A stretch of DNA of 64,000 nt from an uncultured Candidatus Poseidoniales archaeon (GTDB lineage Archaea; Thermoplasmatota; Poseidoniia; Poseidoniales; Poseidoniaceae): contig CAJJAP010000004.1 of the NCBI GenBank assembly GCA_905182185.1, positions 5,773 to 69,772 on the forward strand, given 5' to 3'. This document shows positions 1 through 11,576 of the stretch, in pieces. Within the stretch, counting starts at the first letter, position 1. The number at the start of each line of letters is the position of its first letter. Position numbers and translations under genes: made by a program. The notes beneath the pieces were generated by a model. It ran no database searches and had not been told where the DNA came from. It was given only the letters and a program-made list of their open reading frames with translations.

Positions 1-2056
1 TCTTTCCACCTAATGTAGAGTTACCTGCTTGTGTAGGACAGTCATCGAATAAGTCTGACCAGCCATCACCATCTTGGTCGATACAGCCTTGTTCGCCCAG
101 TGTTGAGTTACCTGCTACAGTCGGACAATCATCCAATACGTCGTCAATTGAGTCAGCATCGTCATCTAAGTCTTCATCACTATCACGGCAGCCATCACCA
201 TCTACATCTGTTGCTTGGTCTGAAACCCAAGTAGGTCTCGGTGGATTATATTCCGTCCATGGACATAAGTCATTTACATCATCGATTAGATCATTATCAT
301 CATCTGAATCTTCAGTATCATCCTTGCATCCATCATTATCCCAATCGGTTGAAGCGGATGGGTTGGCAGTATCTTGAGTGCTAGTCCAATTATATTCTCC
401 ACCACGGGGGCAATTATCAGGGAAATTATCTGTTAGTCCATCATTATCATCATCTGAATCACATGCATCTCCTTGACTATCAAAATCAGTATTTGCTTGT
501 ATAGGATTTGAATCGGAAGGGCAATTGTCGTTAATATCAGGAATCCCATCATTATCCATATCCTTCTTTGTTGCAGGGTCAAAGGCCCATAGGAATACAT
601 CATAACTTCCAGATGAAGTTACAGAATGTGTTCCTTTGGTAACAGTGCCGGAAAGTCCACCAGCAACAGTAACATATCAGACATGTTGACGCTCAAAGCG
701 AGACCCATTTCGTATCCTGCGCTTCCAGAAGTATCCAGCCAATCCCAAGTACCGGTGGAGCCTAAGCCACCCAATAAAATATCCTGATTACCTGTTGGAG
801 ATACGGTATTGCTACCCGCTGTGAAAGAACTGCTAATCGTTGTAGAAACAATAATTTCGCCAGTGGATAATAAAGCGACACCAGAGAATGAATCATTATT
901 CGAACTTCCTCCTGATGTAGCCCAACCATTACCGCTTACTGAATCCATAATTAAGAAAGCATCTCTATTTCCTTGACTTGCAGAAAGCGACCATCCTTGA
1001 CCTTGGAGAGTTCCACCAAATCCACCGACATAGTACATATTACCATTCATGTCTTCTGTAATACCAGTGATCAGTACTACCTCATTTGGCACACCATACC
1101 CAACCAATGTCACTATTGCCCCATTAGTATCGAGTTCTAAAAGAAACGAATCTGCGAATCCCACATTTGCATATAATTGTTGACCGAATGTAACTGCGTT
1201 TTGATTAATTCCAGCCAGAATGATTTGGCCGTTCATTGATGAATGTAAATCTAGAACACCTGTAGTTCCACTACCGCCACTAATCACCCAGATTAATTGA
1301 CCATTATTACCGTCATATTTTGCTACGTAAAGTGAAGGTAAAGCAGCATTTAGAATAGTTCCTCCGAAATCAGTATTACCATCAAATGATCCAGCAATAA
1401 CAATGTCTCCATTACACTCGACTTCAACTGCATCTACAGAACTTGTATTGTTATTTGTTCCAGTTGTTGCGTGGGAATGAGCCCACATAAAGTTTCCAAA
1501 TGGATCCGTTTTTGCTAGGTATCCATCGCCTGCTTGACTGGTAATCGTTTGGATTCCAAATTGTACTGAACCACTAAAAGAACCACCGATTACAGCTTCA
1601 CCGCCCATTCCAGCACCTACATCATAAACGAATGAATATCCATTGGAATGGTCTGCTGTAGCGACCCAATCCCAATCACCTGTGTCTGAAACTGAGCCTA
1701 AGAAAAATTCGCAATATCTACCTGCTAGTTGGGCGCAAGATGCGTGGTATGGACTAGTAGGATTGATAGTTGTTTGACCAAATGTTGCCACATATGATGT
1801 CGCAAATCCCAGCAACAATATTACCGTGACCAAAACCTGCCATAACCGAAGCATATTCAAACCAGTACCTACCTGCACTGGTCAAGTAATGATTTGCTTT
1901 TGCCCGACCAGAGACGGACAATAAAGTGATTTCTTCAAGTTGTTCAGATTCTTCTTCAACAATTTTCTCATCATACAATAAGATTGGAGTAAGTACTGAA
2001 AATAATAGAATCACAATTATACTGCGGGCAATTACACTTTGAGATAGACTACGCAT
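1..2056 (-). CDS. Secreted surface protein with beta-propeller-like repeats then thrombospondin type-3 (DxDxDG) Ca-binding repeats; frameshifted and running off the window edge
   Basis: ORFs 1754..2056 (signal-anchor N-terminus) and 619..1878 join through indels near 1810-1870. A frame change near 673 continues, by hand translation, as VTVAGGLSG...KDMDNDGIPDINDNCP...DWDNDGC...DQDGDGWSD to base 1. Confidence 0.75.
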
Positions 2057-2496: not shown

Positions 2497-4053
2497 TCAT
2501 TCAGGGATGTAGAACAGTTCTACACTACCAGTACCAAGTGAAATTGGTTGTCCTACGATGATGTTCTCTGCAACACCAGTGAGGTAATCTTTCTCACCGA
2601 TAATACCCGCCTTGAGCAAGTGGTTAACAGTAACTTCGAACGCAGCACGAGCAAGAATACTGTGCTTTGAACCGGATACACCATGACGACCAATTGCACG
2701 GACTTCACCTTCAGAAGTCATTACATCTGCAACCATCAATAAGTGACGTACATCGACTTCAAGACGGGCTCCGTCAAGAGTGTCTTGCAATTCGTTAATA
2801 ATCGCCTGTCGAGCTGCTTCAATACCAAGATAATTGTAAACTTCGAGAATGTTATTGGTATAGGTACGGGAGCGATCGATAGTTTCAAGTTCGCTTACAC
2901 GTTGAAGGTTTGAACCGATTGTAGAAAGATAATATTCCCCAGTTTTGTCATCCAATTGTACATTTGCTCGAAGGACATTAGGTATTCCCTTCAAACGCAT
3001 ATCTCTAATCTTCTCTTCTAATTGAAGGAGCATTGTATAGGATGGCGGGTTATCAGCAAGTTCTGCTAAATCTTCTGCACTATGAATACCAGGAATCAAT
3101 GTTAGAGTGGAAGGTTTCTTTTCCTTATCCGCTTGAACATAAAGCCTTGTAGCCCGTTCTAGTTTATCCTTAACTTCCAATTCAGTCATGCCCTTTTGCT
3201 TGAGCATGCCCTTATTCAATTTCAAAACTAATCTTCTTTGAGCAACGTCTGTTTCAAGAGAAGCAATGTTTACAGTCGTAGTTACTTCAATACCAGCAGC
3301 TAACTTCTTCGCTTCTTCTGCGGAGTGTTTCTTATCTCCTGCTAAACGAATTGTCATTGTTGGTGTTTGTGGAACCTTTCGTGCATCGACCACTTCAATA
3401 ATACGTGGAAGACCCATTGTAACGTTAATTGTAGCAACTCCCGCATAGTGGAAAGTACGCAGAGTCATCTGAGTACCCGGTTCACCAATTGATTGCGCTG
3501 TAATAATACCTGCTGCTTCATAAGGGTCAATACTTGCTCGCTCAAGTGCTATAATAGAACCGCTGATAACTTTCTTTGCCTGCGGCTTAGTTAGTTTATT
3601 CATCCCTCTATCATGAACTGCTTGTGTTAAGTCATGAAGAATTCGGTCATTAAAACGATCACTGCCTGCTGCTTCAACTGCACCAAGCAAGGACTTGAAG
3701 ACTGGGTCATCGGACAATGTATCTTCCAATGAAAGCAATTTCTTAGCACTATCATACGTTTCTAAGTCTGCTGCGATCTTAATTGTAGAGCGCTTCTTAG
3801 CCTTCTTCAGTTTGACATTTGTTACAGGACCGGTTGATTCGCTACCTTGGTCTTGTCCCTTCTTGGTCGCACCAATAATGATACCATGAATTGTGTCGCC
3901 AGTTTCAGAATCGGTTTCACAGATTTGAGCAATTTGTTGCGCTGTCAAAATCTTGACATCGTCCCATTTCCTGTCATCTGCCAGAGTATGTGCATAGTTA
4001 TCTGCAATACCCAAATCCATTAACTTCTTTTTGGTTGCACTCTTTACTACCAT
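2497..4053 (-). CDS. rpoA2: RNA polymerase subunit A'' (Rpo1C) with N-terminal extension
   Basis: AQSIGEPGTQMTLRTFHYAG, GLPRIIEVVDA, RHLLMVADVM, GVAENIIVGQ; 518 aa. Confidence 0.97.
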   Translation of the reverse strand: MVVKSATKKKLMDLGIADNYAHTLADDRKWDDVKILTAQQIAQICETDSETGDTIHGIIIGATKKGQDQGSESTGPVTNVKLKKAKKRSTIKIAADLETYDSAKKLLSLEDTLSDDPVFKSLLGAVEAAGSDRFNDRILHDLTQAVHDRGMNKLTKPQAKKVISGSIIALERASIDPYEAAGIITAQSIGEPGTQMTLRTFHYAGVATINVTMGLPRIIEVVDARKVPQTPTMTIRLAGDKKHSAEEAKKLAAGIEVTTTVNIASLETDVAQRRLVLKLNKGMLKQKGMTELEVKDKLERATRLYVQADKEKKPSTLTLIPGIHSAEDLAELADNPPSYTMLLQLEEKIRDMRLKGIPNVLRANVQLDDKTGEYYLSTIGSNLQRVSELETIDRSRTYTNNILEVYNYLGIEAARQAIINELQDTLDGARLEVDVRHLLMVADVMTSEGEVRAIGRHGVSGSKHSILARAAFEVTVNHLLKAGIIGEKDYLTGVAENIIVGQPISLGTGSVELFYIPE

Positions 4054-7000
4054 CAGCTCTCACCTCCATCATACTCAGATGCATCTTCCCATGCACCAAG
4101 ATCGTCTTCTGCTACTTCATGTTCAAAGGACTCTCTATCAACAAGAGTCTTTCCTTCAGTTCCAAGTGCATCATCGACAATTACATCAATGTTGAACGCA
4201 GAGCCGTGAACACCTCTTGAAGGGTCGATACCATCTTCACCATATGAGAATTGAATAATACGATTTGCAGTATTACGCACAGAGAACATATTATCGCTGG
4301 TAACCTTCAAGTCATCCATTGCGTTAATCAAACGGCGTTGCATATATCCAGACTTAGATGTACGAACCGCTGTATCTACCAGTGATTCTCTACCGGAAAC
4401 AGAGAGCATGAAAAACTCCGTTGGCCTTAATCCACGCTTGAAAGAAGAATCGATGAAACCTCTTTCACTAGCACCTCGACCTCCACGTTGGAAGTGAGGA
4501 AGAACACGGTCTAGGTATCCACGTTCTAGACGCTTACCACGAACCTTTGCTTGACCAATAGAACCTGCCATCATCGTCAAGTTGTCCATAGAACCACGAG
4601 CACCTGAAATAGCCATGTTAACCGCAGCGTTTGTAGAACCAGATTGGTTTAATTCATCCTTTGCAATATCTCCAGCAGTTTGCTTACCTTCATCCAACAT
4701 AACCATGATATTCTCTTCTAGAGTTTCACGGGTTGTACGACCAGGTCTGGTTTCGTAATTCTTTCCATCCTTACCAAACTTTTTAAGTTCTGAGTTTACT
4801 AATTGACGTGCATCTTCATTCGCTTGTTCAATAGCGCTCAATGCCTCAGCAGTCAAATCTTCATCATCAATACCTGTTGTAAATCCGAGAGATGTACAAG
4901 CTGCAATTGTTAATCGTGTGAATTCGTCCAAGAACTTAGCACCTAATTCAGGCCCTTTGGTCTGAACTATCTGGTCCAGTAGACGTCCGTCTTCAGCACC
5001 GATAGCACGCTTGTCTAGAGTTCCTGTGACCTTTCCATCTTTGACTATAACATCATCATTAGAACGACTGCGGAATCGAATATTGATATCGTCTGGAATA
5101 ATCAATGATATGAGATCCGTACCACGGAAAGAATCATTACCATTTTCATCCTTAACAATCTCAGGTAGTTCCCCTGTCCAGTCAATATTACCAAGCATCT
5201 CAAGTCCATGCTTAAAGGAAATAAGGGTACCTGGGCGTGTCAAAAGATAAGCACCGGAGATGTGATCGTGTATTCCACCGATAACCGCTCCACCATAACG
5301 AGGTGTTAGGATGTGCTCTTGTACTCTCATCAAAATATTAGCTTCTGCACGAGCCTCTTCGGATTGGATAATATGCAAGTTCATTTCGTCACCATCAAAA
5401 TCAGCGTTATATGGTGTACAAACCGCTAAGTTGAAACGGAAAGTACGACCTTCCATTACACGAACTTCGTGTACCATCATAGACATTCTGTGAAGAGAAG
5501 GTTGACGGTTGAAAATTACTACATCCCCATCTACTAAGTGACGTTCAACCAAAAGACCAGGCTTCGGGTTGCCGTTTCTATCAACGGTTGACAAACGATC
5601 TTCAACAAAGGTTCGGTCTCCCCATTCATCTTCAGGACTTCCACAATGTGGACAAGAGATGTTTAGGTGATCTGGAATTGGTTCCGGATGTACCTTATCA
5701 GATTGTGCCAGTTCCCACTTCCACCTGTTGTGAAGAACTGCGCGTGGGTCATCATCTTCAAGAGGATGTCCATCACGATCTTCACCACGAAGGTTAGCGA
5801 TAGTTGCTTCATCATCAACCACGTATTTTTCTTCAGCGATTGAACCATCGATTCCAAGAGAGGTTTCCTTGCGGATTACTAGACCTGGAAGGAAGTTAGG
5901 TGCATGAAGTACAGAATGTAGGTCAGGACGCAGGGTGTTTTCTGCACCGCTCTCACGGCATTCCGGGTTTCCACAGCGGTATCCAGCTTGCATTAGGCGG
6001 CTGCGTTGATTGATACGAACACGGCGACCGTCACCACGAATAATGTAGTTAACACCAGGGTGTACATCAGGTCCACGAAGAATCATATGTCGCATTTGCT
6101 CCTTGTTTCTTGTAGTAACACGGATTGGAACTGTTAATTCCTTAGCGGTTACCAATGGGACACCAACTTCGTTAACACTGAGGTATGGGTCTGGTGAGAT
6201 AACTGAACGTGCACAGAAGTTAACACGCTTACCGGATAGGTTAGAACGGAATCGCCCTTCCTTACCCTTCAAACGCTGTGTTAGAGTCTTCAGTGTACGA
6301 CCTGAACGATGACGTGCAGGAGGAATTCCTGCTGTTTGGTTATCGAAATAGGTAGTAATATGGTATTGTAGAAGTTCCCACAAATCCTCAACGATCAGTT
6401 GCGGAGCACCAGTATCACGGTTCTCTCTTAGACGCTGATTGATTCTCAATACATCGACTAACTTGTGCGTTAAATCGTCTTCTGAACGGTCACCGCTATC
6501 CAAAGTAATGGATGGGCGAACGGTGATTGGAGGAACTGGAAGAGCCTTTAGAACGATCCATTCTGGACGATTTAGCTTGTCCATACCAATGAAGATTAGA
6601 TGCTCGGAAGGAATACCACGAAGCCATTCTCTGACATCTCGTGGGTTGAGTTTCCTCTCAGTTTCCTTACCAGTACCTGCATTGTCAATTCTCTCTTTGA
6701 AAGTTGTTGGCTTGTCGAGCATAATCTTACCCTGTAAGTTGTCACAGTGCATACATTGCTTTCTCTTTACACCAGAAGTTACCTTCTCAACTTCTTTGAT
6801 AATCTTTGTAAACTCTGTTGAACCGACACCGTGCTTGGTGATGATATCACGAATTCTTGAACGGTAATAATCTTGCTCAGAATGCTCTACGTTAGTTGGA
6901 GAAGTTCCTGCTTCATCGTGCAGTAGAATCTTGTTACAATTGTTACATGTAGACTTCAAAGCGGTCTTGATCAAGTTTACGAAACCGATGTGTATAACCG

Positions 7001-7256
7001 GTAATTCCAGTTGAATATGCCCAAAGTGACCAGGTGATTCATCATACTTACAATTGTCAGTTGGACAAAGTAATCCCGGTTCGATTACACCCATGTGCGG
7101 GTCCATCAAACCTTGTTTGTATGCGTGTCCATCATCCTTGTATGTATCAGCAGTTTTGACCTCAACAGAAGACATCTTGCGTATTTCAATCGGGTCCATC
7201 AGTCCGAAGCGAATCAATGAGATTCGCTTAGGTATCATTATACTATTTTGGCTCAT
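4053..7256 (-). CDS. rpoA1: RNA polymerase subunit A' (Rpo1N) with large dock-region insertion
   Basis: Catalytic NADFDGDEMN, GHFGHI, FNRQPSLHRMS, LVDTAVRTSKSGYMQRRL; 1067 aa. Confidence 0.98.
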   Translation of the reverse strand: MSQNSIMIPKRISLIRFGLMDPIEIRKMSSVEVKTADTYKDDGHAYKQGLMDPHMGVIEPGLLCPTDNCKYDESPGHFGHIQLELPVIHIGFVNLIKTALKSTCNNCNKILLHDEAGTSPTNVEHSEQDYYRSRIRDIITKHGVGSTEFTKIIKEVEKVTSGVKRKQCMHCDNLQGKIMLDKPTTFKERIDNAGTGKETERKLNPRDVREWLRGIPSEHLIFIGMDKLNRPEWIVLKALPVPPITVRPSITLDSGDRSEDDLTHKLVDVLRINQRLRENRDTGAPQLIVEDLWELLQYHITTYFDNQTAGIPPARHRSGRTLKTLTQRLKGKEGRFRSNLSGKRVNFCARSVISPDPYLSVNEVGVPLVTAKELTVPIRVTTRNKEQMRHMILRGPDVHPGVNYIIRGDGRRVRINQRSRLMQAGYRCGNPECRESGAENTLRPDLHSVLHAPNFLPGLVIRKETSLGIDGSIAEEKYVVDDEATIANLRGEDRDGHPLEDDDPRAVLHNRWKWELAQSDKVHPEPIPDHLNISCPHCGSPEDEWGDRTFVEDRLSTVDRNGNPKPGLLVERHLVDGDVVIFNRQPSLHRMSMMVHEVRVMEGRTFRFNLAVCTPYNADFDGDEMNLHIIQSEEARAEANILMRVQEHILTPRYGGAVIGGIHDHISGAYLLTRPGTLISFKHGLEMLGNIDWTGELPEIVKDENGNDSFRGTDLISLIIPDDINIRFRSRSNDDVIVKDGKVTGTLDKRAIGAEDGRLLDQIVQTKGPELGAKFLDEFTRLTIAACTSLGFTTGIDDEDLTAEALSAIEQANEDARQLVNSELKKFGKDGKNYETRPGRTTRETLEENIMVMLDEGKQTAGDIAKDELNQSGSTNAAVNMAISGARGSMDNLTMMAGSIGQAKVRGKRLERGYLDRVLPHFQRGGRGASERGFIDSSFKRGLRPTEFFMLSVSGRESLVDTAVRTSKSGYMQRRLINAMDDLKVTSDNMFSVRNTANRIIQFSYGEDGIDPSRGVHGSAFNIDVIVDDALGTEGKTLVDRESFEHEVAEDDLGAWEDASEYDGGES

Positions 7257-10876: not shown

Positions 10877-11527
10877 TCAGTTACCCTCTACGATCAGACG
10901 GTATGCAACAGACTTACCAGCCGACGGGGATCGGCGGATAACTTTGATAACGCGGTCGGCAATCCAACCAGCAGGAAGTGGTGTATGGTCTGCATCTGCA
11001 GCCAAGTCGGCCATGTCTCCAATTTCAGCGGTTTCTTTAATCGCTTGAACAGCAGGGTCGGAAATCAAAATCTTTGGGAGAAGTTCTTTTGCTAGGCGAG
11101 GCATTTCTGTTTCCTCATCCATTTCAACGATGTCCCAAGGTGCGAGATGTTCGCTTTCTACTGCGAATTGTTCCTCGGCCGAAATATTTGCTTTGCCAAC
11201 TAATTCTTGGTGAGGCACTAATTCGTGATTTAGTGCATTGAATCTAGAAGTGATTTCTGGTCGGTCGAAATCATCAACGGTTTTTGCTCGAATTGTAATC
11301 TTCTTGCTTTTCTTTGCTGCCCTGCGTCGAGAACCTTGTTCTGCAATAACAGACATTACATTGGTAAATTGCTCAGAATCTTTGGAAACACCCAATACTG
11401 CAGCGATCTCATCAGAAGAAAGACCTTTGATGTCTGTCATGTTTCTGTCAGTCGCTAGTTTGTGGGCGAACTCTTCGGAGACTCCCAGTTCCATCAATCG
11501 CTTCTTTGTTGCGCTCTTTACTACCAT
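10877..11527 (-). CDS. rpoH: RNA polymerase subunit H (Rpo5) with about 90-aa N-terminal extension
   Basis: HELVPHQEL..LPKILISDPAVQAI..VIKVIRRSPSAGKSVAYRLIV; first gene of the rpo operon. Start placed at MVVKS by similarity to the RpoA'' N-terminus. Confidence 0.88.
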   Translation of the reverse strand: MVVKSATKKRLMELGVSEEFAHKLATDRNMTDIKGLSSDEIAAVLGVSKDSEQFTNVMSVIAEQGSRRRAAKKSKKITIRAKTVDDFDRPEITSRFNALNHELVPHQELVGKANISAEEQFAVESEHLAPWDIVEMDEETEMPRLAKELLPKILISDPAVQAIKETAEIGDMADLAADADHTPLPAGWIADRVIKVIRRSPSAGKSVAYRLIVEGN

Positions 11528-11576
11528 GTCAAAGTCCCCGTACCCAGTTTGCACCCTTGCCTGCCACCCTTTCAGG

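Follow-up and report, generated by a model that had tools for sequence, protein, structure and literature searches.

Lineage-specific domains nested in the catalytic subunits of RNA polymerase (RNAP) have been described in bacteria, as in the SI1, SI2, SI3, BEAN and HABAS insertions of the beta and beta' subunits (PMC11515920; Lane and Darst 2010), and in human Pol I, whose subunit RPA1 carries a lineage-restricted (metazoan) domain named 'dock II' that has been proposed to act as a protein platform (PMC9438803). Here we describe an insertion of this kind in an archaeal polymerase. It lies within rpoA'/rpo1N, a gene encoded in a stretch of 64,000 nucleotides from an uncultured Candidatus Poseidoniales archaeon (assembly GCA_905182185.1, contig CAJJAP010000004.1, positions 5,773 to 69,772 of the forward strand), which we call the window and whose own coordinates are used below, and it adds 137 residues to the dock element of the encoded subunit, Rpo1N. 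It is, in all likelihood, a genuine, order-wide and independently folding accessory domain nested in the Rpo1N dock and very probably stapled by zinc.

The insert thus belongs to a kind known from bacteria and from metazoan Pol I, and differs from the described cases by its archaeal host, its site in the dock, its Cys4 clasp and its unmatched fold. Its likeness to the bacterial insertions is that of a domain that appears to fold independently, is nested in a conserved region of a catalytic subunit, is bound to one lineage, follows the tree and sits on the surface of the enzyme. The bacterial insertions, however, draw repeatedly on a small set of folds (sandwich-barrel hybrid, BEAN, HABAS), and not one of them is a Cys4 module in the dock, whereas the Poseidoniales insert lies within the archaea-specific insertion of the double-psi beta-barrel and found no fold match in our searches. 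The Pol I 'dock II' is, its name notwithstanding, not a dock insertion, since the paper describing it places it in the foot (RPA1 1060-1155; PMC9438803); it is a lineage-restricted domain of the largest subunit as well, but it has an HMG-box fold and no zinc. The RNAP zinc sites ZBD1 of RpoA' and ZBD3 of RpoB at the exit mouth, contacted by FttA in Thermococcus (PMC11616081), are also small Cys-rich metal sites on the surface, but they are universal in archaea and consist of short loops, while the insert is specific to an order and clasps a domain of about 100 residues. No prior description of the insert was found in the open-access full-text literature on Rpo1N insertions of Marine Group II/Poseidoniales. 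A conserved orphan domain of 137 residues in the dock has, to our knowledge, few parallels in archaea.

Every RNAP of archaea and of the eukaryotic nucleus is recruited by TFB, TFIIB or one of their relatives, and the surface used for this is the dock. The zinc ribbon of TFB recruits the polymerase through it (PMC7289017, PMC13502027, PMC10881513), nascent RNA is guided along it toward the exit (PMC7111264), and an RNA of 12-13 nucleotides collides with the ribbon, which leads to TFIIB release (PMC6212726). The dock and the regions around it rank among the best-conserved portions of the polymerase beyond the active centre (PMC2680338), the archaeal double-psi beta-barrel carries an archaea-specific inserted element (PMC11515920), and the factor FttA, seated on the exit mouth, contacts the zinc domains of both RpoA' and RpoB (PMC11616081).

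The host gene, as defined by its open reading frame (ORF) translation and Pfam, occupies positions 4053-7256 of the minus strand, on which all the features described below are also encoded, and its product has 1067 amino acids (aa). It stands in the order rpoH-rpoB-rpoA'-rpoA''-L30e on a single strand, as read from Pfam matches on the neighbouring ORFs. The protein contains the Pfam RNA_pol_Rpb1 domains 1-5 in order (E 1e-91 to 2e-20) and the catalytic NADFDGD motif at aa 617-623, and its solved relatives are the subunits of Pyrococcus furiosus, Thermococcus kodakarensis and Sulfolobus (E 1e-233 to 9e-271), the closest being P. furiosus Rpo1N (8cro_A, E 9e-271). The one irregularity in this domain series is that Rpb1_2 is broken into two stretches by the insert. 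Near-identical proteins in the databases are labelled 'Candidatus Poseidoniaceae' and 'Poseidoniales archaeon', which makes the source a member of Marine Group II.

The interval in question (5562-6011) translates without a stop into 150 residues, aa 416-565. Upstream it is bounded by the N-terminal dock strand YIIRGDGRRVRI (aa 404-415, 6012-6047), the last canonical residues, which align to 8cro_A up to residue 394-398, and downstream by the C-terminal dock/barrel strand PGLLVERHLVDGD (aa 566-578, 5523-5561), which begins PGLLVERH and where the sequence is canonical again, corresponding to 8cro_A 409 and yeast Rpb1 G429. When compared with 8cro_A by phmmer, query aa 415 pairs with residue 394, the match breaks off at query 419 and target 398, and it restarts at query 567 and target 409; the alignment to yeast Rpb1 likewise restarts at G429, so that the insert falls between yeast residues 416 and 429. 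The insertion point comes directly after the strand RRVRI of the dock hairpin. About 14 residues occupy the site in Pyrococcus, in yeast Rpb1 and in the sister order, against 151 here, and the net insertion is therefore 137 aa, in agreement with the original prediction, made from the sequence of the window, that 150 residues separate flanks which usually stand about 15 apart. Because the strands on its two sides are those at P. furiosus Rpo1N 394/409 and at yeast Rpb1 416/429, and because it falls within the double-psi beta-barrel insertion, the insert can be placed in the dock, as that prediction had also stated; we take the limits of the dock to be about Rpb1 391-450, after Cramer et al. 2001.

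The inserted interval has the character of an acidic orphan domain, as judged from its translation, the split of Rpb1_2, AlphaFold2 models, its charge and its substitution pattern. Its most conspicuous elements are two Cys pairs, which the original prediction had pointed out near the start and the end of the segment and which were found exactly there: CGNPEC (C428 and C433, aa 428-433, 5958-5975) starts 13 residues into the segment, and CPHC (C535 and C538, aa 535-538, 5643-5654) stands 27 residues before its end, with 101 residues between C433 and C535. In an alignment of 28 sequences from 21 genera and three families, sharing 47-94% identity with the query over the insert and short flanks, 31 columns are invariant, and they include all four Cys, as had been proposed for checking. 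The first pair is invariant within the consensus CxNP[ED]C, which follows G-[FY]-R, and the second is invariably C-P-H-C; Cys occurs in at most 4 of the 28 sequences in any other column. Both R-CxNP[ED]C and CPHC are likewise present in every one of the 123 database proteins that cover the region. Other invariant elements are the A-P-N-F-x-P-G motif (APNFLPG here, aa 452-458, 5883-5903; alignment columns A42, P43, N44, F45, P47 and G48), T-x-x-N-L-x-G, the R-W pair (columns R101 and W102) of NRWKWE (aa 510-515, 5712-5729), which sits in a long predicted helix (94-108 of the model), D-R-L-x-x-x-D (columns D143, R144, L145 and D149) in EDRLSTVD (aa 552-559, 5580-5603), a conserved segment of the return toward the dock, and P-x-x-G. 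The only invariant His is the one in CPHC; the His before R-W varies to Tyr, Gln or Leu.

Pairwise ratios of nonsynonymous to synonymous substitution rates (dN/dS, Nei-Gojobori) are 0.04-0.22 in the insert, against 0.01-0.06 in the remaining 915 codons, from which it follows that the insert is under clear purifying selection, 1.5-4 times more relaxed than that of the core. Between families its identity is about 50-57%. The G+C content of the insert is 0.48, against 0.41-0.45 in the rest of the gene, without a sharp compositional break. The insert is acidic in all 28 sequences, with a net charge of -8 to -20 (mean -14) and an isoelectric point (pI) of 4.4-5.4 (mean 4.7), and it carries about half of the net negative charge of the whole 1067-aa subunit.

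The distribution of the insert follows the order closely. A whole-genome search with the 150-aa segment alone recovered it in 40 of 41 relatives, and in a sample of the class it was present in 74 of 77 genomes of one large family (f1) and 46 of 49 of another (f3), together 120 of 126 Poseidoniales genomes; with both genomes of a third family (f2) also positive, all three sampled Poseidoniales families carry it. Every full-length match places the segment within a single open frame of about 1030-1130 aa. In the sister order the segment was not detected: family f5 gave no match in 2 genomes and family f4 one in 22, a spurious 45-residue match (E 0.005) in an unrelated frame. In five sister-order genomes Rpo1N has 892-905 aa, the two halves of the query adjoin with about 10 codons between them, and the sequence at the site reads RRVKL, 13 residues, PGF. 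With the block and all four of its Cys found again in 40 of 41 relatives, 120 of 126 class-sample genomes and 123 of 123 database proteins, the insert is not a chance feature.

Beyond the class, a segment search across Thermoplasmatota gave matches in Poseidoniales only. A weak match in one further Thermoplasmatota genome (G371; E 2.5e-4, query residues 7-57) was judged spurious, as it runs across the stop codon (locus position 1259) that ends a radical-SAM-like ORF (3..1259) in the same frame, and the reported 293-aa frame is absent from the listed ORFs. Unrelated insertions at the same site were sought in 200 further Thermoplasmatota genomes of at least 90% completeness, using as query an uninterrupted 127-aa segment of the sister order: all of the approximately 150 non-Poseidoniales genomes gave a single contiguous match of 119-131 residues spanning the site, with no insertion there, whereas in Poseidoniales genomes the same query matches only downstream of the break. 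The comparison across Thermoplasmatota that the original prediction had called for limits the insert, in the sampled genomes, to the order Poseidoniales rather than to the phylum as a whole. On this sampling, the sequences point to a single gain at the base of Poseidoniales.

The frame that contains the dock is sometimes far longer elsewhere in Thermoplasmatota, reaching 1019-1164 aa in a genus (g28) of family f7, in which the match to the segment immediately upstream of the dock disappears, and 1269, 1636, 1652 and 1979 aa elsewhere, among genomes G320, G254, G298 and G324. These long dock frames suggest other insertions, fusions or inteins in Rpo1N.

Structure prediction supports a folded domain. 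AlphaFold2 models of the insert in its context (264 aa) gave average values of 75-95 for the predicted local distance difference test (pLDDT) in ten-residue blocks over the insert, and the insert alone (161 aa) was modelled with a mean pLDDT of 84.8 and a predicted template modelling score (pTM) of 0.75. The predicted order of elements is a helix, a short strand bearing the first Cys pair, two helices, a beta-hairpin, a helix, the long R-W helix, and a mostly irregular return bearing the second Cys pair, so that four predicted helices and a beta-hairpin stand between the knuckles. In the in-context model the insert loops out and the flanks superpose on 2pmz_A (Z 7.8, root-mean-square deviation (rmsd) 2.0 A, 64 residues) and on residues 381-442 of Drosophila Rpb1 (9mu7_A; Z 7.6, rmsd 2.0 A, 61 residues); because they fit solved large subunits in this way, the dock geometry is predicted to be undisturbed.

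No relative of the domain outside the order emerged from the searches. A phmmer search of the insert against 1.84 billion representatives returned 22 matches, 20 of which are full-length or short fragment proteins that match over one contiguous stretch with 48-73% identity, and which we read as probable Rpo1N pieces of the Poseidoniales clade; the other two matches are weak, repeat-like and of low complexity. Pfam found no domain in the insert, a Zn_ribbon_3 match on the CPHC knuckle (E 0.07) being under the cut-off, and a profile search of the PDB gave only matches of E 0.7-1, to eS31 and bL36m. The insert-only model had a best E of 1.1 in Foldseek against the PDB and a best Z of 2.2 in VIA-align against 48,161 chains, with no sandwich-barrel hybrid, HABAS or BEAN chain among these fold matches. 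The best E in BFVD was 0.36, and in the ESM Atlas a shape search returned only RNAP clusters of the same clade and weak rows (TM at most 0.45), while a search by language-model features reached a best score of 0.88, under the lead level. For a model of such confidence a Z of 2.2 is unusually low, and it may reflect a new fold or a non-compact shape that is sensible only when packed on the enzyme.

The arrangement of the four Cys suggests that C428/C433 and C535/C538 probably bind one zinc together and close the base of the domain. With 101 residues between the pairs, against about 10-25, on a small three-stranded sheet, in zinc ribbons, the site would be a zinc clasp that holds a larger domain together at its base, and not a classical ribbon. 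The earlier proposal of an inserted domain based on a zinc knuckle is thus upheld as far as a Cys4-built domain is concerned, given the conservation and the confident AlphaFold2 models, with metal binding as the expected consequence, but not as a classical knuckle or ribbon, for about 100 residues intervene and no zinc-ribbon profile gave a significant match.

From the point of insertion we infer that the domain projects beside the TFB-ribbon site and the mouth of the RNA exit. A 137-residue acidic alpha/beta domain would loop out from the tip of the dock element of Rpo1N onto the back face of the enzyme, next to the place where the TFB zinc ribbon binds and to the opening of the exit channel, and TFB would probably still dock, since the canonical flanking strands keep the usual geometry. 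That the insert serves at this face as a protein-contact module, or as a steric or electrostatic one, is a reading that its position suggests and that we hold to be about evenly balanced between true and false. Such a module might adjust the holding of TFB and its release at promoter escape, or it might offer a landing site for a factor acting on the emerging RNA; it is unlikely to bind nucleic acid itself, because it is uniformly acidic. The suggestion in the original prediction that the domain could alter initiation or RNA exit likewise derives from its position. A more far-reaching proposal is that the dock insert serves the transcription cycle as a functional component absent from other archaea, be it a gate controlled by zinc or redox state or a built-in, factor-like module by the RNA exit that alters the holding and release of TFB or recruits a termination or coupling factor specific to the order, and this we regard as unlikely.

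Some considerations weigh against a contact or steric module at the TFB and RNA-exit face. Many of the lineage-specific insertions of bacterial RNAP have mild or unclear roles, and TFB gives no sign of having co-adapted with the insert. Compared with the sister order, TFB1 has neither an insertion nor a deletion, and its first 110 residues (ribbon, reader and linker) keep 86-96% identity across the order, as compared in the two large families, and 55-60% to the sister order, while the insert keeps about half of its residues between families; on the strength of the missing length changes and of this difference in identity, we see no sign of co-adaptation. A complex prediction of the insert and two zinc ions with the TFB1 ribbon (residues 1-50) scored 0.06 and 0.01, against a mark of 0.32, and speaks neither for nor against binding. 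As further observations on these factors, the N-terminus of TFB1 is far more conserved than the Rpo1N of the same genomes, and the second TFB (L046 1384-2394) carries, throughout the order, an extension of about 38 residues before its ribbon.

The main rival to a contact or steric module is structural accretion, in which the domain became fixed a single time, in the order's ancestor, and has been kept only so that it stays folded, as misfolding would harm an essential enzyme, with no partner and no effect on transcription. The faster evolution of the insert (1.5-4 times that of the rest of the subunit), its modest identity between families, the large share of Cys, Pro and Gly among its invariant residues, which is what structural constraint would produce, the TFB without a matching change and the other lineage-specific additions borne by the same polymerase are all in keeping with accretion. 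It accounts less well for the non-structural R-W, N-L-x-G-E, D-R-L and N-F residues that stay invariant over a divergence at the level of the order, and for a dN/dS that never exceeds 0.22. On balance we consider accretion a real possibility, but one that probably does not hold.

The insert could also be a zinc module that binds nascent RNA or DNA at the exit, acting as a built-in RNA chaperone or as a sensor of pausing or termination. Cys4 modules are frequently nucleic-acid binders, and the insert and its edges hold a few invariant basic residues (the R411-R414 region, R427, R511, R554 and K565). The site moreover adjoins the path of the exiting RNA (PMC7111264). The strong acidity of the domain in 28 of 28 sequences, with the net charges and pI values given above, and the lack of any matching nucleic-acid-binding family or fold nevertheless make this quite improbable.

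The presence of a Cys4 module exactly where an external Cys4 ribbon binds raises the question of whether the insert is a built-in mimic or competitor of the TFB ribbon, which would fill or gate the dock in cis until TFB comes, or replace part of the factor. Eukaryotic Pol I and Pol III do own built-in factor-like domains (for Pol I, PMC9438803), and the insert and the B-ribbon of TFB/TFIIB share one CxxCGS knuckle in addition to their surface on the enzyme. The resemblance goes little further: a B-ribbon has about 15-20 residues between its knuckles, whereas the insert has 101 and a whole domain there, and an hhalign comparison of the insert with the TFB N-terminus gave a probability of 7.8% over 13 columns round that knuckle, with no evidence of homology or of descent from a B-ribbon. 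The ribbon is, besides, a separate protein that has been retained, as this genome encodes two TFB paralogues with intact ribbons and canonical TFB1 and TFB2 are kept in every genome searched. A ribbon mimic must be considered very doubtful.

Another proposal is a zinc or redox switch, in which the domain would come unfolded and alter the polymerase if its Cys4 site were oxidized or gave up its zinc in the sunlit, metal-poor water of the surface. It is suggested by the invariant Cys4 site on an exposed accessory domain and by the surface-ocean habitat of these organisms (PMC6461757), as well as by a change in a second metal site of the same subunit, ZBD1 (7017-7067, Rpo1N aa 64-80), which has degenerated from the canonical CxxC-x6-C-PGH. 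Both here and in 119 of 119 database proteins of Poseidoniaceae it reads C-PTDN-C-KYDE-S-PGH, in which Ser stands in place of the third Cys and the first pair is spaced differently, and the zinc use of the enzyme has therefore changed in the lineage; the second Rpo1N zinc site, CNNC...CMHC, is intact. The ZBD1 change does not, however, go along with the insert, since family f3 has the insert and keeps a canonical ZBD1, and a link between the insert and the loss of ZBD1 ligands was rejected for this reason. As the case for a switch comes down to the presence of four Cys, and most Cys4 sites are purely structural, we judge it highly improbable. Elsewhere in the class, ZBD1 retains one Cys in family f2 and in the sister-order genus g25, and it is canonical in the sister-order genera g23 and g24. 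The loss of a universal RNAP zinc site within the class looks unusual.

Finally, the remnant of a mobile element (a mini-intein, a homing endonuclease or an HNH nuclease) or an assembly artefact, for which the size of a mini-intein, two Cys pairs as in HNH nucleases and the slightly raised G+C content might be cited, is effectively refuted by the lack of any Hint, LAGLIDADG or HNH profile match in Pfam, by ends (Asn at the start, and Asn-Pro-Lys followed by Pro at the close) from which the splice-junction residues of inteins are absent, by the want of an invariant catalytic His, the sole invariant one being part of CPHC, and by a segment that keeps the reading frame, evolves under purifying selection and recurs at one and the same site in over 120 independent assemblies.

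Other parts of the operon and its neighbourhood also depart from the usual pattern. RpoH (10877-11554) has 225 aa, with Rpb5_C matched only at aa 152-221, and RpoA'' (2497-4053) has 518 aa, about 130 above the usual; given that both are oversized, the polymerase bears further lineage-specific additions. Directly downstream of L30e, an ORF of 419 aa (619-1878) without a Pfam match takes the usual place of nusA. It was considered as a partner of the insert and rejected, because it is not a transcription factor but a protein with an N-terminal hydrophobic segment and repeats rich in Gly, Ser and Thr. The next ORF (2-559) is rich in Asp-x-Asp-x-Asp-Gly repeats and was read by eye as calcium-binding and similar to thrombospondin type 3. 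To the eye, both look like secreted or surface proteins, and on that account the transcription operon appears to end at L30e here.

The finding bears on a group of organisms of wide ecological importance. Marine Group II (Poseidoniales) count among the archaea most plentiful in the surface ocean and have not been cultured, so that their transcription apparatus is known from sequence only. The insert block provides a clean order-level signature of Poseidoniales for metagenomes, and at about 160 residues the insert is a compact target for expression, metal analysis and structure determination. Taken together with the extra modules of RpoH and RpoA'' from the same operon, it suggests a polymerase decorated beyond those of the model systems. 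If the dock insert does prove to have a function in the transcription cycle, the archaea that are most abundant at the ocean surface would carry out basal transcription by a mechanism unlike that of the Pyrococcus and Sulfolobus models.

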